Position numbers and translations under genes: made by a program. From Eledone cirrhosa (lineage: Eukaryota), in the NCBI GenBank assembly GCA_964016885.1, contig OZ024742.1, positions 102,734,001 to 102,798,000 on the forward strand: a DNA stretch of 64,000 bases, read 5' to 3'. The notes beneath the pieces were generated by a model. It did not search any database. It was not told where the DNA came from and saw nothing but the letters and a program-made list of their open reading frames with translations. Shown piece by piece: positions 1,170 through 64,000 of this stretch; position 1 is the first letter of the stretch; each line of letters begins with the position of its first letter.

Positions 1170-1800
1170 TGATAATTTTAGGTTCATAACTTTGCTAAAT
1201 GCAGAGTTCAAAATTTTGGCCAAGGTATTAGCGATGAGGTTGCCACTTGTCATCGGTGGTCTGGTAGGGGTGGAGAGACATATGTCATTCTTAAGAAATC
1301 CATCCATGACAACTTCCACCTTATGCGATACATCATAGGGAGGATGGCTAAGGAACCTGGCACAGGTAGGGCCCTGATCAACTTAGATCAATCAAAAGCA
1401 TTCAATAGGGTCGACCATCAGCACCTGGTGGTGGTTCTCAAAGCAGCTGGCTTTGAGCCTGTTTCAGAAAAGGGATCGCTGCTATGAACAGTGATGATAC
1501 TGTCCTGCACACATTTATCCAGTGTCCGACTTGTGGGGTTATGTCGAACACCTGTTGTCATGTGTAGAATGAATTCGTCTATCAGCTGAGTCCATTGTGA
1601 AGATCACTCTGCTGCCTTCCTTTAATCAGGAAAGGCAGGCTGTTTTTATCTGTCTGACAAGCAGTTTGAGGAGAGAAGTAAGCATAACCTGAGTGAATGG
1701 GCCTGCTTTGAGTGTGCGCCTGTAGATTGGAGAAGGACAACTGGGACAGGGCACTTGTCCTAGAGATCAGGGCACCTATAGTTTTATGGGTTTTTTTCTA
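1170..1800 (+). mobile_element. Degraded L1/Tx1-type LINE RT fragment
   Basis: Encodes ITLLNAEFKILAKVLA (about 1187) and INLDQSKAFNRVDH (about 1377). Confidence 0.75.
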
Positions 1801-20700: not shown

Positions 20701-20746
20701 TTACACCTGATGAGATCACTGGCCACTGAAATGTGCATAGAGTTTA
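20701..20746 (+). ncRNA. Degenerate hammerhead ribozyme
   Basis: CTGATGA (20707), GAAA (20728), T-GTGC-A, TA. Stem II appears to have lost its 5' arm and stem I pairs poorly. Confidence 0.45.
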
Positions 20747-21007
20747 CAAAGGAAATTTAACATATTTGGCCTCCTGTCATTTCACTTTATATTATATATA
20801 ATAAAGTACCAGTAATGCACTGGATAATTGCTGGCCTTGTGCCAAAAGTAGAAACAATTATATATATACATATATATATATATACTGTATATATATATAT
20901 ATATATATATAGTCCAGAATTAGCCGTCGAAACGGCTTGAGCTCAGCTGTCGGGGTCTTACTGGTTCCTATATATATATATATATATATATACTGTATAT
21001 ATATATA

Positions 21008-21043
<36 letters not shown>

Positions 21044-21045
<2 letters not shown>

Positions 21046-21355
21046 GATATTAAACAAATGGAAACTACATTTATAAAACCATATTTATTTCATTATATAT
21101 ATTTCAGGGATATCATATTAAAAATATGGTATGCCCTCTTCAGACAAAATACAATATATAAACAGTTTTATAAATAAATTTGACATACCTTGGAAAATTT
21201 ACAACTTCCATTTAAAAAGTTGTTATATGGTTTTATAAATGTAGTTTCCATTTGTTTAATATCGTAAAATACTTCAAAATCTGTTGAGTGCTTTTATATC
21301 AGTTATAAAAATATTTACTCGTTGTAACCCAACAATTTTAAATAAAATTTTTGCA
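21044..21355. mobile_element. Non-autonomous Penelope-like fold-back element in (TA)n
   Basis: 41-bp inverted repeats at 21044-21084 and 21225-21265, an internal HHR, a unique tail, and (TA)n on both sides. Confidence 0.65.
21086..21151 (-). ncRNA. Minimal type I hammerhead ribozyme
   Basis: Minus strand: TATTTTGT CTGAAGA GGGCATACCATATT-ttt-AATATGATATCCCT GAAA T-ATAT-A TA ATGAAATA. Confidence 0.75.
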
Positions 21356-21975: not shown

Positions 21976-22206
21976 TATGTCAGGTCACCAGTTGGTGCTA
22001 CTAGTAACATGTATCCCAGTACAACCTGTCTCATGGTCGGGTCGTTGGCGACTAAACTGGCAACCCCACCAAGGTTTCTTGGTGAGGAGGGTGACTTTGG
22101 ACATCCTGCAGGACTAAATAGTGAAGTTTTAAATCAACATATTAATTAAGTTGATTTAAAACTTCACTATTCACAAGTGTTTTTTAAGCTTCATATCATG
22201 TATCCC

Positions 22207-22277
22207 TATTTTATCTGATGAAAACGCAGATATCATCCAATGATGATATTTGTTTTTGAAATGCGCATAATAAAATA
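22207..22277 (+). ncRNA. Minimal type I hammerhead ribozyme (Penelope-like)
   Basis: Stem I is TATTTTAT/ATAAAATA, followed by core CTGATGA, a long stem II (GCAGATATCATC-caat-GATGATATTTGT), GAAA, a palindromic stem III T-GCGC-A and an AUA cleavage triplet (cut after 22269). Confidence 0.85.
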
Positions 22278-22638
22278 CTTGGAACTCTTTTAACCATCTT
22301 TTGATCTTATATTATTTGTACTCCAGTCCTACAAACTGTAGAGTGCTACTTATCCGATATTTGCATTGCTTTATTGTGCTACAATAAAACTCACCTCCTA
22401 CACTATATATATATATATATATATACATATATATATTAGTGAGTCCATAATACAATCGGGGGTTACCACAATGAGTAAGGTACTTAATACATTAGTAGAG
22501 TGAATACAACAAATTTAATTTAGAAATGGGTTTTACAGGACTAGAACTGTTTCATTCGCGATCATATTCTTTTGGTCATTACCCAAGATTCCTAACCATA
22601 GGTAATTAAACACTTTTTACTATGTTATATATATATAA

Positions 22639-25012: not shown

Positions 25013-25407
25013 ATAATTGTTACTACTTTTGGCACAAGGCCAGCAATTATCTCAGTGTATTACTGGTACTTTATTTTATCGACCCCGTAAGGATGAAAGG
25101 CAAAGTTAACCTTGGCGAGATTTGAACTCAGAATGGCAAAGGCCGTAACTCTATGCGTCAAAGCATGGCGTCCGACCCTCTACCGATACTGCCAATCCAC
25201 TACCCTTATATGATAATTGTTTCTACTTTAGGCACAAGGCCAGCAATTACCCAGTGCATTACTGGTACTTTATTTTATCGACCCCGTAAGGATGAAAGGC
25301 AAAGTCAACCTCGGCGGGATTTGAACTCAGATCGTAAAGGGACGTAACTATGCTGGAAAGCATGGCGTCCGACCCTCTACCGATACTGCCAATCCACCGC
25401 CCCTTAT
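25013..25407 (-). mobile_element. Two head-to-tail copies of a tRNA-derived SINE (family A, Meta-domain-like core)
   Basis: A box TGGCAGTATCGG, B box GAGTTCAAATCC, core GCCTTTCATCCTTACGGGGTCGATAAAATAAAGTACCAG, and tail GCTGGCCTTGTGCC..AGTAGAAACAATTA. More than 20 full or partial copies occur in the window. Confidence 0.9.
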
Positions 25408-25630: not shown

Positions 25631-26615
25631 TACATGTTTTTAATGATATTGATGTCAAACAGCATTTGAACCCCTGCTTTTATCTGTTCTCCATGTTTAA
25701 ACATCTGTTTTTCCCATGTTTACTGACAGGGAACTGCTTTACCTCCCCCTTACCCTCCCTGGCTATCTTTCCTTCCCTCTCTTTTCTCCCACTTAACAGC
25801 CTGCCAGCCCCTTACTTTCTCAGCAGTAGTGTGTATGAGGTGGGGGTGGTAACTCCCCTCCACACTATTTGGAACGATTTTTTTTATTTGTTCTTTATGT
25901 CACCTGACATTGTAGGTAACTAATTGGTTAGCCATTTTGAAGTTGGACTACATAGGTGGTGTCTGAATAAATGTGTGTGTGTGTGTCTCTCTGGTGTATA
26001 TGTGTGTGTAGTTTGTTTGCATACGTCTATGTTATGGTGTGTATGCATATATATATATATAAATACTTATATGTATGTTTATGTGTTGTTTTGTCTGATA
26101 TATATATATATATACGTATGAGTGTATGTGTTTATAGTGTGTATGTATGTATGTGTATATGAATACATGTGTGTGTGTGTGTCAGTGGTGTCTATGTGTG
26201 TCTATATGAATACATTTATGTGTGTGAGTGTTGTTTGTTTGCATATATTTGTCTGTTTATATATATATGTGTGTGTGTTTTGGACCTTTGTCAGTTCTGA
26301 CGAAGAGTGTTCTAGTTGTTTGAATAACAGAACAGTCTGCTCATGAAATTAACTTGTAAGTGTCTGTCTGAATATTATACAGACCCGCATAACCTTAACG
26401 TTGTTCTCAGGGAGATTTGGCTTGACACTATAGGTGATAAAGCTTTACAGGTACAACTCATGTTTTCCAACTGAGTGGACTGAAGCGACACGAAATAAAA
26501 TGTCTTTCTCAAGGACACAATATGTTGCCTAGTCTAGGAATCAAAAACACAATCAGAAACCCTGCACCCTATCCACTAAGCCATGTGCCTTTGCATATAT
26601 ATATATATATACAAG

Positions 26616-26793
26616 AGTCAGGACCCCGACGGCTGAGCTCCGACCGTTTCGACAGCTAGATCCCTGAGTTCGGATCTAGCTGTCGAAACAGCTGGAGCTC
26701 AGCCGTCGGGATCCTGACTATTTTCCTATTACCCACTCTACTACCCTAAGTATCGAGTACTCTGGTACGCAATGGTCCACCTGGTTTCTTACC
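26616..26793 (+). mobile_element. Fold-back element containing a hammerhead 3' half
   Basis: Hairpin at 26616-26719. The right arm has GTC GAAA CAGC-TGGAGCTCA-GCCG TC GGGATC. The tail is shared with 29314-29526 and the element is flanked by (TA)n. Confidence 0.65.
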
Positions 26794-26801
26794 AGACTGT
26801 G

Positions 26802-26844
<43 letters not shown>

Positions 26845-27897: not shown

Positions 27898-27905
<8 letters not shown>

Positions 27906-28470
27906 AAGTGAGTCCTTCATCAGTGACCCTCCAACCGTCCTAGGCATTTCATCGCTTTAAGGGCCATATGCCTCAGGTTGGTGCGAACAACGGCTAAAAA
28001 AAGTCGTTGGGACACGTAAACAAAGGGGACGCCAGGGTAACAACAAAAAGGTTTAAGCAACGGAAAGTGAGAAGAAATAGACAAGTCCCAGATCTCTATG
28101 AATATAAACTCGGTGAAATCGTGAACAAGAGACAAAAGACCATCAAACCTGGTTGAAATGTGAGCAAGGAAAGAATTTCGCCCAAGTTTGACGGGGGGGG
28201 GAAAAAGAGAGAGATAGAAAGGAGAGAAGAGGAAGAAGAAGAAGAAGAAGAAGAAGAAGAAGAAGAAGATAAAGGGGTCTGGTCTACGAATTCGGTAAAC
28301 GTAAGTTTTGTGAAGTCGCAGACGAAAGAGACTTTTTTTAGCCGTTGTTCGCACCAACCTGAGGCATATGGCCCTTAAAGCGATGAAATGCCTAGGACGG
28401 TTGGAGGGTCACTGATGAAGGACTCACTTTTTCATATGTATCCCATTTGCAACGCCGCAGCTCCATTATT

Positions 28471-29313: not shown

Positions 29314-29526
29314 GAAAATGTTCAAGACCCTGGCGGCAGAGCTCAAGCCGTTTCGACGGCTATTTCTGGACTAAATTCAGAATTTAGTCCAGAAATAACC
29401 GTCGAAACGACTTGAGCTCTGCCGTCGGAGTCCTGAATATTTTCCTATTACCCACTCTACTATCCTCAGTATTGAGTACTCTGGTGCGTTATGGTCCACC
29501 TGGTTCCTTACCACACTTCCTTCGTT
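29314..29526 (+). mobile_element. Fold-back element containing a hammerhead 3' half (family of 26616-26793)
   Basis: Hairpin at 29314-29444 with GTC GAAA CGAC-TTGAGCTCT-GCCG TC GGAGTC and the same tail TTTTCCTATTACCCACTCTACTA. A truncated third copy lies at 20911-20970. Confidence 0.65.
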
Positions 29527-31231
29527 ATATATATATATATATATATATATAATGTATGTGTGTGTGTGTGTGTGTGTAAAAGGTAAACAGAAATAACAAA
29601 AATAACAAAACAAACGGTCACAGTTCATGGAAGAAATATATTTTTATATGTGTGTGTGTGCGTATGTGTGTGTGTGTATGTATGTGTGTGTGTGTGTAAA
29701 AAGTAAACAGAAATGACAAAGCAAACGACAGAGTGCAATAAACGAATGTATTTGTATAACGCTTGAAATAATAGGAAAAGAGTCATTACGTTTCGAACAA
29801 TAGTCATTCATCAGAAGATAGAGAAATAAAAGATGAAATAGAAAGATAGAGAGTGGGAAGGGGAAGAAAGGGAAACACACTCACACATTTATGCAGTTAT
29901 ATATGCAAATATATTCATTTTTAAAAATTCATTAGTTATACGTTACAGATAAATAAGCAGTGTGTGTATGTCTACATATGTTTCTATACATATCAAAATA
30001 TATGTATGCCTGTATACATGCACATACACGTATATTTACGTACACACATGCACAGATGTGTGTATAAGCACATACACATGTATGTAGATATTAACATATA
30101 TTAGTATACATATATAACCACGTTTACATTTCCACACTCAAATTAAAAAAACAAGTATGCATAAATGTATATACACAAATACAGACATGTGTATATATAT
30201 ATACACACACGTACACAGATATATACATGCATTCATATATACATGCATACATACACGTACACAGATATATATATATGTGTTGTTTCCTTGAGCAAGACAC
30301 TTTATTTCACATTGCTCCAGTTTACTCAGCTGTAGAAATGAGATGATAGGGACCCAGTCCCTATCATTCCACTGCAAAGAGGTTGTGGAGGTGCCACGGC
30401 AAAAAAGCACCCAGCACTCACTGTAAATGAGGTTGGTGTTAGGAAGGGCATCCAGCTGTAGAAATCAAGCCAGAATCAGTTCCCGTCCCACCCTTGCAAG
30501 CAGGGAAAAGCGGACGAAAATGAAATGAATGATTCATATATACAGATACATGCATACATAGATCTATACATGCATTCGTACATACACAAATACATACATA
30601 CACAGCTATATACATGCTGTTATGCATACTAAGATACATATACACCCATACAACACACACACACACGCAAGCACACACACAACACATACACACACATGCA
30701 TGTAATATGAAACTTTGAGTTGTTGACTGACCTTAACATTTAAATTTCTTTTTTTTTTATTTGAAAATAAATAAGAATTCTGATCACTACCCCCTACTGA
30801 AAACAATCACAACAACAAAAATCCCAATAGATATATATATAAATAAAATAACAGATACAACCTCCCACACACGGAGGGAGAGGCTAAGCATTTCAAAGCT
30901 ATCAAATCTCCTTAAAAGCTAGCTGTAAAACTTCTGTCAAGCCTTGTACTGTGGGAGTATATTGAGCCCTTTACTTTGTAATATTAGGATCACCTATATT
31001 TATACACATATACACACAGATATATAGTCACAAACTCATACAGACTCAGACACACACACATATATATATAGTCACAAACTCACATAGACAGACACACATA
31101 TTTATATAGACACAGACTCACACAGACAGGCACACACATATATAAAGTAAACACACAACAAACATATATGTATATATATATAGTCACAATCTCAGATATA
31201 CACATAGATATACTGTCACAAATGTGCATGG

Positions 31232-31317
<86 letters not shown>

Positions 31318-32138
31318 GTGTATGTATATATATATATAAAGCATGCATACACTTAGCCAACACGCATAGATATATAGCTACAGACACACAAATAGTCATA
31401 AACTCACACATAGACACACACATGCATAAAGCATGCATAAACACAAACACACATATATAAAGCATGCACACATAAACTGAAACACAGTTTGACAACAACC
31501 TAGAGTCAAACAGAGAAAGCCATCCTGTCACCTTTCTCAGCTTGCAATTATCTGGCAATCTGTTTCACTGTTTCACATATCATCTACCCCTGGGTTGCAC
31601 TTGGGGTCAGAGTGGTAGCTAGGGATTGGGAAAGAGGGACAGATGCTTTTGTACATAGATTCAGGGTGTGTCTTCAACTCACCACTACACACGGTTTTAC
31701 ATATCATCATCATCATCATTTTTACGTCAACTTTTCCATACTGGTATGGGCTGGACAGGACTTTTTGAAAAAATTGTTTTACAGTCAGATGTCCTTCTTG
31801 ACACCAACGCTTTTAGTTGCTTCTTACAACATACTGGGATATGGTGTACTTATTTAAAGCCACACTCACACACACACATATTAGAAAGTAAGCTTTTTTA
31901 TATATCCTACATGGGTAAAAATATAAGAAAAAGAAGTTGAAAATACAATTAGAGGCTTTCAGAAGGTTTACCTTCTTAAAGACTCTAATTGCATTTTCAA
32001 CTTTTTTCCAATATAATGTTTGCTTTATGTTCAGTATTTGATATGGGGTTTAGTCTTATAATTCTTTGAATTTGGTAAACTTTGTTCCTTTTCACATTTC
32101 CCGAAGAAATCCAGTTATATGTATTATGTCTTGTGTTA

Positions 32139-32325
32139 ATAATTGTTTCTACTTTTGGCACAAGGCCAGCAATTATCCCAGTTCATTACTGGTACTTTAT
32201 TTTATCGACCCCGTAAGGATGAAAGGCAAAGTTAACCTCAGCAGGATTTGAACTCAAACCGTAAAGGGCCGTAACTCTATGCTGCAAAGCATGGCGTCCG
32301 ACCTTCTACCAATACTGCCAACACC
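32139..32325 (-). mobile_element. SINE family A
   Basis: Full-length copy with the same core and tail. Confidence 0.88.
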
Positions 32326-32537
32326 GATACTATCTTGTGTTAATAATTGCTAATTAATTATTTCTGATTGTTTTCATATGAATGTACTATTGTAACCTGT
32401 GTTGAAATAGACAGAAATTAAAGTGGATTTAAGTTGTTAACCTTGGACTTTTTTCATTATAAATATATATATATATATATATACACACATTAGCAGGGTA
32501 CTTGTAAAAAATAACGGGATGTTTAATAGTTGTAGTA

Positions 32538-39065: not shown

Positions 39066-40790
39066 ATAATAATAATAATGAAAATATTGTGTACAGTGCT
39101 CAGGTGCAGTACAACTCATCAAAAAGTGTATGTATATTACATAGGGTAATGTACAAATGTCAGGAAAATGAACAGAGCATGAGTTATGATATACATGTGT
39201 GCATGTGTATGAAAGGGGTACATCAGGTGTAGTTTTGGCGAATTTCGGAAAGCATGAGGGTTTTAAAGGATGCAGTATCTCGGCAGCTAACAACTGACGC
39301 AGGCAGTTTGTTCCATGCTTCAGCAACTCTAAGCATGAAAAAATGTTTCCGAAAGTCATGGGAGCTGTGCTGTTTTCTGATTTTGTAGGCATGTCCACGT
39401 GTGTTAGACACATGGAGATCAAAAAGGTGCTCAGGGTTGTTGTTGGCGAGATGGTTAATAACTTTGTGGGTGTTTACCAAGTCCATTGCCAGACATCGGA
39501 GCTTCAATGAATCCATGCCCAGGGAAGCAAGGCGTCCAGAGTATGGTAGGTGTCTGATGGAGGGTATGCACTTGGTTGCACATCTCTGAACAGTTTCCAG
39601 GAGGTCAATGTTCTGAGCAAGATAGGGGTTCCAGACTGATGATGCGAATTCCAAGTGTGGTCGTACCATAGCTGTATACAGCTTTAAATAAATGGCTGGA
39701 GAGCGGCTAACAAAGGTCTTGCTGAGTGATGCCAAGACACCCTCGGTCTTCTTGACAATCTTAGAGACATGCTTTGTCCAACGCAAATCACTGCTGACAG
39801 TAATGCCCAGGTCACGTTCACAAGAGGACTTCTTGATATCAGTGTTGTGGAGGGAGTATGTGGACGCTGGATTTTTCCTCCCAAAATGCATGTTGGTACA
39901 CTTGTCCACAGCCAGCTTCAGTTGCCAGTCTGTGATCCATTGCTGCATTGTGTCCAGGTCTGATTGTAGGAAAGAGTTGTAGATTTCAGGATCAGTCCTT
40001 TTGATTTCAAGGTACAGCTTGATGTCATCTGCATATTTCAGTACCGTGGCATTCTTTAAGTTGGCATCTATGTCATTAATATATGCCACAAACAAAAGGG
40101 GACCAAGAACAGATCCCTGTGGTACACCAGATGACATCTCATATGGTGAAGAATGCTGTCCTAGAACTGTGACTACCTCTTTTCGGCTGAGAATGAAGGA
40201 TTTCAACTAGTTAAAAAGATCATCCCTCACACCCATTGCAGAGAGTTTCACCATAAGTCTTTTGTGTGGCACAGAATTAAAAGCCTTAGCGAAGTCAAGG
40301 TAAACAACATCCACCCATGAGCCACTGTCAGTGAACCGGGTAATGTCTTCAAGGAACACGATAAGCTGATCACAGCAGCTGGAGTTAGGGATAAATCCAA
40401 ACTGCGAGGGCAGGATGAGGCTGTGCGAGCTCTAGAAGTTCCAAAGTATTTCTCTGACACAGGATTCCATCAGTTTGGCAATACAGCTAGTAAGACTGAC
40501 TGGACGATAGTTGACAGGTGACGTGCGGTTGCCCTTTTTGAACACTGGCAGTTTTCCACTGCTCCGGAGTAGCACCATTGTTGAGACAGTATTGAATGAA
40601 GAAAGAAAGCTGGTGCAAAAAGAAGTACCTGCCACGTTTGAGAAGCAGGTATGTAACACCATCAAGACCAGGGGAGGCATAGTTGCGCTTATTCTTAAGG
40701 TGACGTCGCAACATTGCAGGTGTAAATTCCATTGTTGGTACATGAGATGGTACATTCTGGTTTTCAACAGTATGAGCTGTAACTAAATAC
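39066..40790 (-). mobile_element. 5'-truncated CR1-clade LINE
   Basis: RT motifs YRPVSLTSCIAKLMES, YLDFAKAFNSVPH, GVPQGSVLGPLLF and YADD, plus C-terminal MVRPHLEFASSVWNP and NTRGH. The 3' UTR ends in an (ATT)n-like tail. The element is inserted into a SINE. Confidence 0.92.
39223..40206 (-). pseudogene. CR1 reverse transcriptase, 327-aa open remnant
   Basis: The ORF contains GVPQGSVLGP and KYADD. Its upstream portion is broken by a stop codon and frameshifts. Confidence 0.9.
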
Positions 40791-41436
40791 ACCATCCTGC
40801 CAAACCATCACCCTTATAACATTTAATGTGTAGCCTTATAATATAAGGCTACACATTTATTTGTGAGGGGTATAATTGATTAAATTGGTCCCAGTCAGCT
40901 ACTTATTTTTAGTGACGTGAAGGGCAAAGTATGAACTTAGAGTGTACAGGGCTGAAAGTAAATTATGCAAAATATTAAGTGTGGTTTCCTACTGCGTTTA
41001 CAATACTGTTACTATCATCCACATCATCATCATCATCACCATTTTATGTCTGTTCTTCCACGCTAGCATGGGTTAGACGGGTTGTCCTGTTGTGGGCAGT
41101 GTCCAGTCGGCTGACTTTGTCTTGCTCATATGGGAACTGATTCTGGCTTGCTTTCTACAGCTGGATGCCCTTCCAACATCATTTACAGTGAGTACTGGGT
41201 GCTTTTTTTCCATGGTGCCTACACGTCCACTTTACAGTGTGGGCTAGGTGCTTTTTTTCCGTGGTGCCTACACGTCTACTTTACTGTGTGGGCTAGGTGC
41301 TTTCTTTGCCATGGCACCTCCGCAACCAGTTTGCAGTGGAATGATAGCCCAGTCCTATCATCTCATTTCTACAACTGAGTAAACTGGAGCAACGTGAAAT
41401 AAAGCCCAATGCTCTAACCACTAAGCCATGCATCTT

Positions 41437-51244: not shown

Positions 51245-51540
51245 TCACACTTACACTCTATGACATGCATGCACATAGACATACACACACATACATGCAC
51301 ACTTACACTCAACGACGTATGCCAAATCTTGTTTAATTTGCATGAAGAAGATTAATTTATGAACCATATTTAATGTTTTTTTAAATATAATTAACATTTT
51401 TCAAGATATTATTTCTCTCTCTGAGTAGTTTTGAGTTCAAGTCAATATTTGAGTGCAGGCAAGTTTTTTTGTTGGTACATTAACTAAATATATGAGAAGT
51501 TAGTGGGAACTGCACATGTCTGAATTAATCGAGTGTCAGA

Positions 51541-52168
51541 CATTCTATGAAGGGCCCATAGATTCTATGAAGAGTCTGTGGTGGGTCCATATATCTTGTG
51601 AAAGACCTGTAGATCATATATTTATGAAGGGTTCATAGATTCTATGAAGAGTCTGTGGTGGGTCCATATATCTTGTGAAAGGCCTGTAGATCATATATTT
51701 ATGAAGGGTTCATAGATTCTATGAAGAGTCTGTGGTGGGTCCATATATCTTGTGAAAGGCCTGTAGATCATATATTTATGAAGGGTTCATAGATTCTATG
51801 AAGAGTCTGTGGTGGATCCATATATCTTGTGAAAGACCTGTAGATCATATATTTATGATGGGTTCATAGATTCTATGAAGAGTCTGTGGTGGGTCCATAT
51901 ATCTTGTGAAAGGCCTGTAGATCATATATTTATGAAGGGTTCATAGATTCTATGAAGAGTCTGTGGTGGGTCCATATATCTTGTGAAAGGCCTGTAGATC
52001 ATATATTTATGAAGGATTCATAGATTCTATGAAGAGTCTGTGGTGGGTCCATATATCTTGTGAAAGGCCTGTAGATCATATATTTATGAAGGATTCATAG
52101 ATTCTATGAAGAGTCTGTAAACCCTGTATTGGGTCGATATATCTTGTGAAAGGCCTGTAGATCATATC
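51541..52168. repeat. 77-bp minisatellite, about 8 copies
   Basis: Unit CATAGATTCTATGAAGAGTCTGTGGTGGGTCCATATATCTTGTGAAAGGCCTGTAGATCATATATTTATGAAGGGTT, starting at 51557, 51634 and onward. Confidence 0.95.
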
Positions 52169-52863
52169 TTTCTATCTCTATTGTGCTGTGTTACTTTCAA
52201 TAATTTCATTAGGTATCTTCCTCCACTTCCTCCTTCTTCTTCTTGTAGGTCATGGCATCAAAGTCCTATTGGAAGCAACTATCTCCAAAGGATCTGCAAG
52301 CAAGATCAACTGAGATTATAGTTGTTATCCAACCATCTTGCTCATGGTCTATCTCTGGGTCTCCTGCTGGTTGGCTTTGCCTGTGAAATCTGTCAGGCAG
52401 TGACTATTCAGTCTTACTAAGTGCACATGGAACTAGAATATTTAATGTGTCTTTACCTTATTTGAGATGGTAGGGTGTGATCTGAAGGAATTTTTAGATG
52501 CTATGTCTAGTAGGTGAAGAAATTATGTAGAGGGTTTCTTGTTGGTTTGTGTTACACAGAGATACTACCTATATTTGTCCCTTAATTTACCATACAAATT
52601 GGGTTATTTAGATTAAGTGTATAATATATGTAAACTCTTGCTAAGCTATTAGGAATCAGCATCATAGTACTGTGGTACATAGATAAGGTTTTTGTTAAAT
52701 TACACCAACAAATTTGTTTCAATTTCAGATTGGAGCTGTTTTGAAACCAGCCTGTCCCAAACCAGCTCTCATTCTAAGAAACAAAACTACTCATTTAAAT
52801 TAAAATCGTCCAACATAATTTTGTATAATAACTATGTGTTAAGTTGCTATCTTAATAATGAAA

Positions 52864-56550: not shown

Positions 56551-57448
56551 GGAGAACTCTGAAGCTGTGCCATAGACATGACAACCAACCTAGTGTTAGA
56601 TTCACCCAGTACACTCTGTAAAATGATTGTTGATGGAGAGGCCATCCAGTCATTGAAACTTGCCAAACAAAGGGTCAAAAGGACTCTTCAGTTGTGCCAA
56701 AGACATGACAACCTCCCTAGTGTTGGTGATTTACACAATAAAATGGTTGGTGATAAGAAAGCCATAGAAAACAATAAAATGCACTCAGTAGTTTATGAGA
56801 TTGTTATATTGGGCTCCTAGTTCCCCTGGACATTTGTGGCTCTGTTTAAGTACTGACTGGCCCATGCTGACACATCCAACCTTTGCTAGCAGGGGAAACG
56901 GATGCTAAACAATGATGAGGATGAATCGTGTACATTCAAATCCTCCCATAAATGAGTTGTATCTGTAATTCAAAAGGCTAGCCTTGTCATACACAGTGTC
57001 ACACTGAATCTCCCTGAGAACTATGTTAAGGATACATGTGTCTATGGAAAGCTCATCTGGAACACATTGTCTGATTTGGCTTTCTGCTTCCTCTGGGATA
57101 ACTTATTGAAATGTGAACGAAATTGTACCTAGGTTTGACTCATTTGCATAATGGTATGAGCTTGATGGGTTTATGTGTGAAAACATTAAGTGTGCTGCAA
57201 TATGTACTGTAGGAAAATTTGGTGAGAATAATATGTTTGCACTACAGGAGTTATGAAGGTCGGCTGTAAATATCATAGCATGGCCAAGATAGTCTCATGG
57301 AATAACAAAATGAGGTTTATTTTTCAACATAGCCCCTTATAGGAAACAATGCTGTTATTAATAAGAAGAGTTCAAATTAATGAATGCAAGATTTCACAGC
57401 TCTAGTATCATTCCTTCATAGTCAGCCTATGAATTTGTATTACCTTAA

Positions 57449-57817
57449 ATAATTGTTTCTACTTTAGGCACAAGGCCAGCAATCACCCAGTGCATTACTG
57501 GTACTTTATTTTATCGACCCCGTAAGGATGAAAGGCAAAGTCAACCTCGGCGGGATTTGAACTCAGATCATAAAGGGACGTAACTATGCTGGAAAGCATG
57601 GTGTCCGTATCTCTACTGATACTGCCAATCCAAATAATTGTTTCTACTTTAGGCACAAGGCCAGCAATCACCCAGTGCATTACTGGTACTTTATTTTATC
57701 GACCCCGTAAGGATGAAAGGCAAAGTCAACCTCGGCGGGATTTGAACTCAGATCATAAAGGGACGTAACTATGCTGGAAAGCATGGTGTCCGACCCTCTA
57801 CTGATACTGCCAATCCA
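57449..57817 (-). mobile_element. Near-identical tandem dimer of SINE family A
   Basis: Two adjacent units of about 185 bp differ at only a few positions. Confidence 0.9.
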
Positions 57818-58453: not shown

Positions 58454-58570
58454 CAGGCAGATCACATCTACCCTAGCGACCCGCGAAAGTAGGCGGGCCA
58501 CCAAGGGGCGACCTGAACCCGTGCAAAAATACGTCACAGATGAGACTGTGGAGTCAGGCATTACCCTGAC

Positions 58571-58601
<31 letters not shown>

Positions 58602-58603
58602 AT
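58454..58603 (-). ncRNA. RNU12: U12 minor spliceosomal snRNA
   Basis: The minus strand reads ATGCCTTAAACTAATGAGTAAGGAAAATAACGAGTCAGGGTAATGCCTGACTC...TATTTTTG (Sm site)...GGTCGCCCCTTGGTGGCCCGCCTACTTTCGCGGG...GTGATCTGCCTG. This matches the metazoan U12 5' end with its branch-point-pairing GUAAGGA, stem-loop II, Sm site and stem-loop III with the CCUACUUU loop. Length is 150 nt. Confidence 0.96.
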
Positions 58604-58670: not shown

Positions 58671-61063
58671 CTTTACAATCACATGTAATTAATTTATTTC
58701 TGAATCTAGTTGAAATGTATTATTGTAAGTCACTAAAGTTATGTATTTGTTAATATTTCTGTGTAGAATATTTTTAATTATCGCAAGATTTATTTAAATA
58801 AAAGACACTTTTCGATTTAGGTTTATATTGAAGTAAGAATATTTGCTGTGTCACGTTGCAATGACGAAGGGAGGTAACTACGTGTTCTCGTTGAAAGTTA
58901 TTTTAACAGCATGTTTTTGTTTATTATGAGTCACGTAGCCTACAAGTTGTTGAGCAGCAAACTGTGATCATGTGATGTTCATACTTTCTCTAATAATAAT
59001 ATTATCGGTGTCTCTGAAACATCACATAACTGTTATATGAAATTAAACTCCCAGCAGTGAGGCGCCGAAAGACTAAATAGTGAGTCTTGTTACTCTGGAG
59101 TTTCGCCTGTTTATCACAGGGTCATAAGACAAATATATATGTATGTATATACATATGTGTGTATATATATATATGTGTGTAAATATATATATATGTGTGT
59201 GTGTGTGTGTATATATATATATAATGTGTGTGTTTTTCTTTATATATTTGTTTACAATCTACTGTCTCTCACTACATTATAAGTCAGAACTATGAGAAAA
59301 CAAACCCTATACTATTACATCGTTTGAACGTCTAACTAGGAAGAACCGAATTATAATATCTAATATATATTTATATATATATAGTTATTTAAAAAGTCTA
59401 CTTCTGTCCTCGCCATACACAGAGCCCTTGCTACATCTAACTAATATCAATCGATGTCCAGTTTTTAGTAATCTTTCAATTGGGTTTCAATTCCTTGTAG
59501 AAAGTTTACTTCACTTACGTCGTCAATGTTTGCTTCATCGAGATAGTTGACACCTCACTACCTATGTATTTTAACCATTTCGTTACTATATTTCTAATAA
59601 AAGACATTGACTATAATGATTAAATGAAGGAATAATTTTATTTTATCAAGGTGTATAAAAAAATATACAATATAATTCATTGAACAATAATAATAAAGGA
59701 GGAAAAGAAATAATTTTGAAAATTATTAAGAAGTTGAAGGGATTTAGTAATGTAACTAACTTTTGCTAGTGTTTTGAATCTAACTTTAAGTCTTACATAA
59801 CATTATGATAGGATATTTTTAGATAAATATAAACACTTAAAAACAGTTTTTTTTTAAATTGTAGAAACGAGTGGTTTCAGGCAGTTTGGTATCAAAAGGA
59901 ATTTTGCGCCTTTAAAAAAAACCATGAAAGTTTTGTTTATCACCTTCGACGCCTAATCCCAGTCATATTCAGGACTGTGGTACAAAATAGGGCCGATAAT
60001 TAATCACACGAGGCTAAAATAGCGCCGATAATTAATCGTACGAGGCTAATTTCCTATGTAAGAAAATACTTGGCGACCACGATATATTTCCATCCGAGAG
60101 TTTGTATATAATAAGAAAATTAATATAATAACACAGTAATGAGTGACAATAATAGTGATAATGGAAATGATATGTATTTATAATCTCAGGCATCTCTAAT
60201 TGAATAGGCCTGTTATCAAAGGCATTCCAGGCGTGGCATGATCGTCTTTTTCTAGGATCAACTCATCTAATGTATCTTTCCTTACCATATTTCAACTGAA
60301 AGAAACTGCCTATAATTGTGAAAATAATCAAGAATTTGGAGGGATTTAGTAATATAACTTTCTCATTAAGCTGGTATTTGGAACATAACTCGAGAAAGGT
60401 TCTTACATAAAATTATGATGGGAAACCTTTAGGTAAATATAAGCACTTTAAAATAAACAGATTTGTATCATAGAACCATGGGCGGTTTCAGCCGCGTTCG
60501 TATAAAAAGATGACTGTAGTATTTGATATAAGTATGATATGGCTGCTACTTTTAGCAAGTTGAGCGACCGCGTATAGGCTCCCATGGTAATAAAGTTGTT
60601 TAGCCACACAGGTCTGTTCCGATAGAAGAGATAAACTATGATAAAAAACGTTTATGTTGTGAATATCTTGTCTTTTTTTGTATATCAAGTATTACATTTC
60701 TATAGTGTCCGTTTTAAAGTCTGTAAAGAAAGATTTGGCTGCTATTTCTAGCAGGTGGATCGACCACGTAGTGTCTTTTTTTAGGATGGCGTCAGCAATA
60801 GAGATGTATTCATTTTTTTTCTTTTCTTTTATAAATTTCTTTTCTGAAATATCCCTATGCATTTTCCCAGTGTATCAAAGGCTGGACAGGTATATGTAAA
60901 TAAAGATTTCAACTATGTATTTTACTCACAACTTTTAACATATAGTAGCACTACTGCCGACTGTATTTAATAGAACAACTCACCGTGTTTGTAATCAACT
61001 CAATCAACTAACAACTCTTTTCGTGACCGTATTTCGAATGAAATACATTGTATTTAAATTAAT

Positions 61064-61248
61064 TAATTGTTTCTACTTCTGGCACAAGGCCAGCAATTAT
61101 CCAGTTTATTACTGGAACTTTATTTTATCAATCCCGTAAGGATGAACGGCAAAGTTAACCTCGGCAGGATTTGAACTCAGAGTGGCAAGGGCCGTAACTT
61201 TATGCGTCAAAGCATGGCGTCCGACCCTCTACCGATACTGCCAATCCA
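61064..61248 (-). mobile_element. SINE family A
   Basis: Full-length copy inserted inside a TTAA-type MITE. Confidence 0.85.
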
Positions 61249-61799
61249 ATTTTGAGGGATCTTTATGTATACAAGGATTCGGTATGTGGCACTTTAATCT
61301 GGCGAAACTCATTTCTTTTCCAAGTGTGAACGCAACCGATTTCTTAGAGAGAGAGAGTATCGATTCCAGTACTTTATTAACCTCTAGAGAATGAAAGGCA
61401 AAGTTTTACTAAGAATTACTAAAATTATTATATGATTAAGATGGTATTTGTAATATAACTTAAAAGTTCTTATGTCAAATTATGTTGGGAAGTTTTACAG
61501 AATCTGAACCTATTTTGGGTATTAAAAGGGTTAAATTCTTGTTGCTGGAGCACTGGTTAGTAATCTTTATTTTGTTTAGTTTAGTGTTTATAATGTATCT
61601 TTAATTTCTCAATTTGTGTGTATCTTGTTTAGAATAGGTTCACCGTTGTAAGAAGTGACAAAAAGGTTGGTGTTAGGAAGGGCATCCGACTGTAAAATAT
61701 TCCTTCAATATGTCCTGTCCAACCCATGTCCGTATAGAAAAATCGATGTAAAAATGATGAAGATGATGGATGTGGTTAGTTGTTGATCTGCCCGTGAAT

Positions 61800-62310
61800 T
61801 ACTGTAGGTTGCCTCAACAATAATTACAACTTGTTGAAGATGGTTGATCTGCGGCTTTTATGTACCTATTCAAGTAGGTGTATGGAAGCAGTGCAAATCT
61901 GTTGTAAGGTATTTAGATTGGGTGTGAATGACACCTGTATGTGGATAGTTATGAAGGCGTGAAGGGTGGTTTTATCTGCATTAGCAGGTAAGTAGAATGC
62001 TAATTGTACAAAGGAAAGTGCATGGGACACATAACCAAATATTGGCGTACATCAAAGTTGATATGAAGTGTGGGTTACAGATATCTAATTGATCATGGGC
62101 TATTTTGTTGAGATCAAATGCATCAAACACTGCTTTTACTTGAGTTTTCAGAAAACCTGGCATCATGGAAACCATACTGATGATGATTAAGGATGGAGAG
62201 AGAAACTGAAGGTGATAACAAAGGTGGTGGTTGTTTATGACTTTTTCTGAATGTTGAGGTTCTGGAACTGTGAACAATTGATCAGGATCAGAGAGGTTAC
62301 ACTTAATGGA
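61800..62310 (-). pseudogene. Possible highly degraded non-LTR RT fragment
   Basis: VKAVFDAFD and TLMYAN resemble the DLKAAFD and LYADD motifs; the match is weak. Confidence 0.3.
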
Positions 62311-62318
62311 GATTGAAC

Positions 62319-62391
<73 letters not shown>

Positions 62392-62392
<1 letters not shown>

Positions 62393-62743
62393 ATGATATT
62401 AAATAAATGGAAACTATATTTATAAAACCATATTTATTCTATTATATATATTTCAAGGGTACCAAAAACTTTGGTACGCTTTCATCAGATAAAATACAAA
62501 GTGTGTTTTATAAATTTTGACATAGCCAAGGAAACATACCTTATCAGTTGAATTTTCCTATCCAAGGAAAATTCAACTGATAAGGTATGTTTCCTTGGCT
62601 ATGTTAAAATATGGTTTTATAAATATAGTTTCCATTTATTTAATATCATTGAATATTTACTCCAGAAATCTGTCGAGTGCTATGAATCAGTTATAAACAT
62701 TTATATTTGTTCAATTTCCAACAAATTAAATATCCCTTCTACT
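62392..62743. mobile_element. Non-autonomous Penelope-like fold-back element in (TA)n, same family as 21044-21355
   Basis: Inverted repeats at 62392-62435 and 62607-62650, an inner hairpin with 46-bp arms at 62514-62610, an HHR, and a tail homologous to the 21 kb copy (AAATCTGTYGAGTGCT...ATCAGTTATAAA). Confidence 0.7.
62435..62496 (-). ncRNA. Minimal type I hammerhead ribozyme (same family as 21086-21151)
   Basis: Minus strand: TATTTTAT CTGATGA AAGCGTACCAAA-gtt-TTTGGTACCCTT GAAA T-ATAT-A TA ATAGAATA. Stem II differs in sequence from the 21 kb copy but still pairs. Confidence 0.82.
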
Positions 62744-62757
62744 TATATATATATATA

Positions 62758-62964
62758 AGTATTAAAGTTTCCGTTGAAAATTAAAAAAAGTCATAGTTAC
62801 AGAGCTAAATTTAATGTATAATAAACAATACAATATAATTACCTCATTACCAGAGGTTTCCCGAATAAGACGAATACAAGAAACGGAGGACGTTTCTTGT
62901 ATTCGTCTTATTCGGGAAACCTCTGGTAATGAGGTAATTATATTGTATTGTTTATTATACATTA
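62758..62964. mobile_element. Perfect palindrome with 74-bp arms and a hammerhead 3' half
   Basis: Arms at 62812-62885 and 62891-62964 around a GAGGA loop. Each arm carries CGG GAAA CC-TCT-GG TA ATGAGGT. A unique tail lies on the left and (TA)n flanks both sides. Confidence 0.65.
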
Positions 62965-63039
62965 TATATATATATATATAAACATATATACATATATAAA
63001 AGGGAACCATAAATCTGATGAGCTATCGATTCCAGAGTC

Positions 63040-63270
63040 ACTCATGTAATAAAGTGAAGACAGTCATCATTGTCCCAGTGGTGATTGGTGTTCTTGGTAG
63101 TAAAATGACAGGAAATGATATGAAAATGTTGGAGTTGCCCTAGGTTACTAGTTGTAGCCTGGTATTCCCTAAAATAACCGGCCCAAAGCAACGTCGAAGT
63201 TGGCTGTGCTAAATATTTAAATAACAATAATATTGGTATGTGGTTAGAATGTCTCAGGAAAGCATTGCTG
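63040..63270 (+). mobile_element. R4/Dong-like LINE restriction-like endonuclease C-terminal fragment
   Basis: Encodes KTVIIVPVVIGVLG, followed later by LRKAL, typical of the VPVVIGALG...LQKA motif. Confidence 0.5.
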
Positions 63271-64000
63271 GACAGATTTTACAGGCAAAACCAGCCAGCA
63301 GAAGACCCAGAGGTAGACTCCTAGCAAGATAGTTGGTTAACATCCATAAGGTTGGTTAATCTCACTTGGGCATCCAGCCAGATCAGTTGGAGATGGTTGC
63401 TTCTGGCAGGACCCACTGGAAGGAGGAAGAGGAAAAGAAGAAGAAGAATCTATTTGGAAAGCTAGTATAATTCAAATATAATGGTGGAACTAGAGTAGAG
63501 TTAAGTAAAAATAAGAAAACAATAGTTTTTGCCCTATATTTCATAATATTTCAAGGTTAGAGCCACTTTTGCAAATGAAGAATGAAAAAAATTGGAGCTT
63601 ATATGGCTATTCTTTGCTAGTGGAAGTAGGTCAGTGGAAATGTAACATATTTAGACAATTAATAGTAACTAGTACCAAGTAGCTCAGATCTGTTGCTAAT
63701 ACTAGGTTTATTCCTTTGATCCACAAATGACCAACTTTTAGAGGTTAAGCAATGCTTACTTTGCTTCTTAGGAATACATGCTTCTGCAAAATTAGGAGGA
63801 GTGTGTCCTGCCTGAAGAGGGAGCCCCAAAAAATAGAATGCTGAAGCAATAAATGTTGGTTCTTCTCTTTAGCGAAGCGTTTGTCGTTATGTCCGTTGGG
63901 TGCAGCTAAGATATTCTTTCTAGCCCTAGACTGGCGTGTAGAGTTTGCTGCTCCTCTACCATTTCCTCTTACTTATGTTATTTGATTTTTTTTTCATTTT

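Follow-up and report, generated by a model that had tools for sequence, protein, structure and literature searches.

The element at positions 62392–62743 of the window (the whole 64-kb stretch of DNA analysed here) is very probably a non-coding insertion of the Penelope-like element (PLE) type, in which one of two head-to-head arms carries a hammerhead motif and the other, tail-bearing arm resumes inside stem I of that motif. We lean, with modest confidence, towards a tail-arm start set where the reverse transcriptase stalled within the long stem I. The literature already describes both this layout and a ribozyme in PLE repeats, and on the present evidence we see an ordinary insertion of the PLE type, one detail of which is suggestive but unproven; what is new at the 62-kb locus is the pair of near-identical arm starts at the inner helix, together with a fixed fold-back distance in three copies.

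Positions along the hammerhead are given as offsets, +1 being the first base after the predicted cut, which was placed by the type I consensus at the AUA triplet ending at 62443 (cut after 62443, − strand). The element lies between a left (TA)n target tract (62321–62388) and a right one (62744–62757). Its short, tail-less arm (62392–62559, − strand) reads outward and contains the whole hammerhead motif and a 74-nt leader. Along this arm we observed the core 5′ box CUGAUGA (62482–62488, −), a 27-nt stem II of 12 positions with a C-C mismatch at pair 4 (62455–62481, −), and a stretch (62443–62454, −) that holds the GAAA box (62454–62451), a short palindromic A/U stem III and the predicted cut. 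Stem I is composed of an inner helix of 8 bp (62435–62496, −; 62489–62496 pairs with 62435–62442) and an outer helix of 11 bp (62418–62515, −; 62505–62515 pairs with 62418–62428). As the original prediction had it, the element folds around 62562, the centre of a palindrome (62514–62610) with 46-nt arms and one mismatch. The right arm repeats 45 nt of the leader with one mismatch, then lacks the next 82 nt and picks up again at +8 to +12, the gap joining an AAAT at −74 to an AAAT at +8 and being bounded by this microhomology (62607–62610, +); the measurements agree with the predicted absence of about 80 nt and resumption about 10 nt past the cut. Downstream of the gap, the long arm matches the left arm to ~+50 (common part 62607–62650, +; identical over +10 to +49) and runs into a one-sided tail of 93 nt (62651–62743, +), which contains a hairpin motif (62659–62680, +) located 8 nt past the short-arm end and with a fold that is not significant alone (z = 0.0).

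The inverted repeats, tail and layout are common to the 62-kb element and to a second copy at 21 kb, as first proposed: both are made of head-to-head inverted repeats inside (TA)n with a ~90-nt tail on one side only, and in both the type I hammerhead motif sits on the arm without the tail. The 21-kb copy comprises a short arm with the hammerhead motif (21045–21207, −; core 21143–21102, predicted cut after 21094), a 7-bp junction hairpin centred at 21212 (21201–21223) and a long arm (21225–21355, +) with the tail and its hairpin motif (21271–21291). Its right arm has no upstream part and begins at +10 (21225) behind the 7-bp hairpin. Identity between the two copies is 78% in the ribozyme arm and 69% in the tail; the arms within each copy show 0 differences over 40 positions, and the two copies differ from each other at 3 of 40. 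All three differences (21045–21084 compared with 62394–62433) are A-to-G on the RNA strand and are present in both 21-kb arms, which could reflect subfamily variation or editing.

A third, more distant relative, not listed in the original prediction, is present at 22117–22403 (+), with a junction palindrome at 22117–22171 (centre 22144), an intact hammerhead motif (core 22215–22261) on the tail arm and a tail hairpin at 22320–22346 followed by (TA)n. The (TA)n flanks are found at both ends of the 62-kb and 21-kb copies and at the 3′ end only of the 22-kb copy. The family is abundant, with 8182 contigs of the sequencing run X1 matching the element; in two RAD runs, 13,074 and 13,863 reads pass, by eye, from the ribozyme arm into tail-like letters, these figures being reads, not copies, and probably coming from few loci. 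The view that only one arm keeps the ribozyme applies to the 62-kb and 21-kb tail arms and fails for the family, because the 22-kb tail arm has the hammerhead and most reads run from the hammerhead into the tail. A ribozyme-less tail arm is thus a trait of some insertions, not of the family. Scans of metagenomes returned 0 matches in one case and 4 in another, all four without hammerhead fold, TA tract or tail. Viral relatives were also considered; the 120 short matches, with a best alignment of 29 nt, were taken as chance.

The assignment to PLEs is based on the two outward-reading arms ending in (TA)n, the short and long 3′ ends, the junction palindrome and the 82-nt gap with 4-nt microhomology. 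Published PLE insertions display an inverted 5′-truncated copy, a one-sided tail, head-to-head junction palindromes, microhomology joins and deletions (PMC8557442, PMC3846280). These features are shared between EN+ PLE insertions and the element described here, as is the hammerhead in the repeat (PMC3846280, PMC8557442); the two differ in the tail, 30–40 bp in the published cases versus 90–93 nt here, and in the ORF, absent here. In the sections consulted of these two accounts, arm starts are not related to the ribozyme. A target-site duplication, if any, would be hidden within (TA)n, and no empty allele was seen. The terminal inverted repeats and the flanking TA would also fit a fold-back DNA element, a MITE-like one or a misassembled palindrome, and no contig bridges 62607–62610 among the 16 pieces listed. 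We consider an origin of this kind, without retro-insertion, very improbable: it sits badly with the unequal ends, the one-sided tail, the variable centres and the covarying ribozyme motif on the outward-reading strand, the same layout occurs in several unrelated families of the window, and 72% of the sampled words of 61900–63300 are present in run X1, possibly the source sample.

The PLE driving the insertion would probably be Hydra-type, and the element itself may belong to that clade. Hydra-clade PLEs have (TA)n targets and hammerheads, located near the 3′ end (PMC8557442), as observed here. A hairpin of the same shape as our tail motif lies 38–47 nt after the ribozyme in three of their consensus sequences (Craig File S7, by eye), compared with 51–60 nt past the cut in all three copies; our motif is also present in two tails of another family. 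The primary sequence gives no match, by eye, to the 3′ end of the listed octopus family, and one 12-nt motif has 0 matches in the PMC8557442 supplement. Note that the clade is defined by the RWK, DKT and CxCX5C protein motifs and by RT phylogeny, and that the element here is non-coding. Among the 112 ORFs of the window, GIY-YIG gave 0 matches, and the window contains no PLE ORF; the three RVT_1 matches in window ORFs belong to other repeats. Fragments with Pfam RVT_1 matches lie at 39226–40431 (−) and 1182–1484 (+), and we read both as LINE-like.

The short arms of the 62-kb and 21-kb copies both end at ~+50, 5–8 nt before the tail hairpin motif. A search for this motif in the window, run without a chance control, gave 8 matches, 5 of them at tails and one more on the opposite strand of one of these. 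Single tail hairpins fold no better than shuffles (z from 0.3 to −1.75). For PAc Poseidon of the green anole, the tail is accounted for in vitro by a pair of internal RT start sites, which would give short and long ends; this element also resembles ours in its AT-rich targets and in the cutting and extension of both strands, and differs in that ribozyme cleavage is dispensable in vitro, with no RNA ends at the cut and, in the parts of that study consulted, no mapping of fold-back junctions (PMC11167929). Metazoan non-LTR retrozymes are similar in being non-coding and AT-rich, with a visible unit of ~260 nt, a type I hammerhead and likely mobilisation by PLE enzymes (PMC7229834; bioRxiv 10.64898/2026.07.22.740005). 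In contrast to their two or more tandem hammerhead units, each locus here has a single motif and no array, so that these loci do not qualify as retrozyme arrays. Retrozymes also express circular RNA; for the element, neither circular nor linear RNA was seen, no RNA run being among the sequencing runs listed, which carries no information on expression.

The hammerhead motif itself is recognizable in all three copies, with the core boxes CUGANGA and GAAA in order and an AUA triplet (NUH). Metazoan PLE type I hammerheads share the conserved core boxes, the long stem II, the short palindromic stem III and the covariation within genome families; here, by comparison, stem I is long (8 + 11 bp) and pair 10.1–11.1, usually G-C (PMC4209133), is A-U, G-U and A-U in the three copies, with the purine–pyrimidine order kept. 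Over the 12 stem II positions counted from the core, the 62-kb and 21-kb copies differ by three double compensatory changes, one one-sided change and one broken pair, and the C-C mismatch at pair 4 is common to both. The strings quoted in the original prediction were correct, as was its observation that stem II differs between the copies yet pairs in both. A simple null matches this two-copy covariation in 0.3% of 200,000 trials. The 22-kb stem II differs from the others yet also pairs. In the three-copy alignment, 7 of the 11 pairs in stem II carry changes in both partners (equalled by 1 of 500 shuffles) and 98% of the cells pair, compared with 36–58% when slid; these are weak statistics, as they come from three sequences only with a structure that we specified. 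A pyrimidine mismatch at stem II pair 4 is kept in all three copies, and stem I displays one-sided G-U changes. The compensatory changes in three diverged copies, the kept mismatch and the G-U changes support the predicted selection on the hammerhead structure, which would have acted on source lineages, not on each insert. Two other sources of covariation fit less well: homogenisation without selection, possible for hairpins, would not preserve the pair 4 mismatch, and ADAR editing yields one-sided A-to-G, not the double changes observed.

Stem III consists of 2 bp and a palindromic loop in all three copies, and energy folding does not recover it. For these three family copies, the ones folded among the 16 core-box matches in the 64-kb window, we obtained z values of −2.4 and −2.5 (62-kb motif), −3.0 (long 21-kb piece), −0.8 (short 21-kb piece) and −1.5 (22-kb copy). 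The Rfam hammerhead models gave no match at gathering score in the window and none at E up to 10 in 62380–62980. A microRNA was also considered and set aside, the Rfam microRNA matches to the palindrome in the search of 62380–62980 being sub-threshold. Elsewhere in the window, hammerhead core boxes and a palindromic stem III-like word, with no clear stem II, are found at 20707–20731 (+), possibly a decayed hammerhead motif.

We then consider where the tail arms begin relative to the predicted cut. The starts lie at +8 to +12 (62 kb) and at +10 (21 kb), i.e. where the inner helix of stem I ends, 7–11 nt from the cut, and none lies at +1. Two starts matching this closely are expected by chance in ~3% of pairs, or ~9% for the best of three, the copies in the window having been picked for matching. 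In addition, nine junction edges were located at +20, +48, +20, +9, ~−47, +124, ~−108, +28 and +20; they derive from five joints, in reads or contigs, for which the letters in between are given, taken from the joints (15 of 45) and letter rows (12 of 41) listed, a sample in which detection is biased. Stem I, on its 3′ strands, accounts for five of the nine (+9, +20, +20, +20, +28), and four lie outside stem I (+48, +124, ~−47, ~−108), with none at +1 to +6 and none at −12 to +6. Note that the three +20 edges coincide with a small natural palindrome and that the +9 edge may be up to 11 nt further 5′. The head-to-head rows 62424/62616, 62434/62624, 62436/62616 and 62491/62728, whose intervening letters are not given, were excluded, because the stem I 5′ strand resembles the reverse of its 3′ strand and can mimic joints; rows on the opposite strand were excluded too, as the majority of them stem from monomers that continue into the tail. 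A binomial test on the arm starts (p = 0.035) was withdrawn as it had used joints without given intervening letters. Over a 69-nt test stretch, partial fits made up only 42 of 2121 contigs, and no pile-up at +8 to +12 was seen among the 6 loose-end places listed of 31, a number from which a modest hot spot could still escape. The neighbouring palindrome-plus-tail element (62758–62962), in the same (TA)n tract, has only the 3′ half of the hammerhead motif; its predicted cut lies 40 nt downstream of the start of both its arms.

These chance levels, given only two copies chosen for matching, leave some room for arm starts unrelated to the ribozyme: the 21-kb arm would be an ordinary, random 5′ truncation, and at 62 kb a palindrome that was once complete would have lost sequence later through microhomology. 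Penelope copies often show deletions of this sort (PMC3846280), and the lack of a hot spot among the loose-end places listed points the same way. Such a history is in our view quite unlikely: five of the nine independent edges fall within a 20-nt stretch of stem I, and the deletion does not take the hairpin from base to base despite an AAAT at +22. This last point also disfavours plain slippage across the whole hairpin, for which the AAAT at +22 would be expected; the 62-kb gap used the one at +8.

The original prediction had read the ribozyme-less arm as a possible record of the 5′ end of a self-cleaved RNA. On this model, the tail arm would be copied from self-cleaved RNA with run-off at +1 and 7–11 nt lost in end-joining, and the other arm from uncut RNA of the same source; we regard this as rather unlikely. 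What stands is that both starts are just 3′ of the predicted cut, and the empty interval from −12 to +6 goes with it. The AAAT at +8 is moreover the first such word past the cut, and flap trimming after run-off gives exactly the 62-kb join. Against this, no arm starts at +1, other edges lie at +20 to +28, the 62-kb arm includes its 45 nt from upstream of the ribozyme and the 22-kb tail arm keeps the ribozyme. Furthermore, the A/U-only stem III of 2 bp is typical of ribozymes with weak cleavage of the monomer (PMC4209133), and in the anole PLE ribozyme mutants left insertion in vitro unchanged, with no RNA-seq read ending or starting at the cut in the parts consulted of that study (PMC11167929). 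Run-off plus trimming to the first AAAT yields the same product, and the data do not distinguish copying from self-cleaved RNA from a stall in stem I; we favour the stall. Counting against the latter, any such block must be leaky, since the ribozyme is traversed in both short arms, in the 22-kb tail arm and in most reads.

The second regularity concerns the fold-back. In all three copies the centre (62562, 21212 and 22144) lies at a nearly constant distance from the ribozyme, 74, 69 and 71 nt before the core (118–125 nt before the cut). A uniform null gives such agreement of three centres with a probability of 0.001–0.009, for a pattern that we recognised only in retrospect. A contig joint at 62559, the end of a contig piece at 62558 and a RAD arm end near 62551 are consistent with a fold-back boundary. 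This suggests a fixed 5′ end, or a strong stop, on uncut RNA ~70 nt before the core.

With a stall in stem I, the insertion could have proceeded as follows. A PLE RT/endonuclease supplied in trans, probably of the Hydra type, would cut (TA)n, and both DNA ends would prime cDNA on the same RNA sequence, one at ~+50 just 5′ of the tail hairpin and one ~90 nt further 3′. The first cDNA would read through the uncut ribozyme to the fixed point ~70 nt before the core and then snap back on itself, the three copies having fold-backs of 7, 24 and 46 nt; the returning strand of the 62-kb copy would have extended for 45 nt, ending at the base of the outer helix. The second cDNA would halt in stem I at the inner-helix edge (+8 to +10) whether or not the backbone is cut, because the 3′ product of a cut would remain held by 19 bp. 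The two ends would finally be joined, with AAAT as the microhomology at 62 kb and by a nearly blunt join at 21 kb.

We hold it to be unlikely that one insertion drew on two RNA states, in which an uncut RNA would have been copied as far as a fixed 5′ end, ~70 nt before the ribozyme, and a self-cleaved one up to less than 10 nt from the cut. If true, junction maps would be a genomic record of germ-line hammerhead cleavage, and PLE hammerheads, whose role is stated as unclear (PMC8557442) and whose cleavage is dispensable in the one in vitro system (PMC11167929), would have a role in setting arm length. We found no literature mapping PLE arm starts against the hammerhead cut, in a search outside which most subscription journals fall. 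As the family has thousands of contigs, the positions of its junctions offer a way to ask if arm ends are determined by the ribozyme, either through its cut or through its fold.

The surroundings of the three copies, in animal DNA, are rich in microsatellites and in other repeats. Another fold-back family in (TA)n is present at 26613–26802, 29314–29527 and 20912–20968, with GAAAC and no matched CUGANGA box, two copies of which have the same tail hairpin motif ~10 nt past the short-arm end. At 27901–28470, perfect inverted repeats of 105 bp flank a spacer of 320 nt; a short tail is present there, and the hammerhead-like boxes come in an unusual order. Two more local palindromes, without TA flanks, lie at 31930–32007 and 40825–40857. 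A tandem array with a 77-nt period, whose inner copies are 98% alike, spans 51469–52195. An abundant dispersed repeat of ~185 nt, which we read as SINE-like, occurs at 25013–25395, 32138–32332, 57447–57816, 61061–61255 and other positions. The only Rfam match in the window is a U12 minor spliceosomal RNA gene at 58454–58603 (−), with 128 bits.
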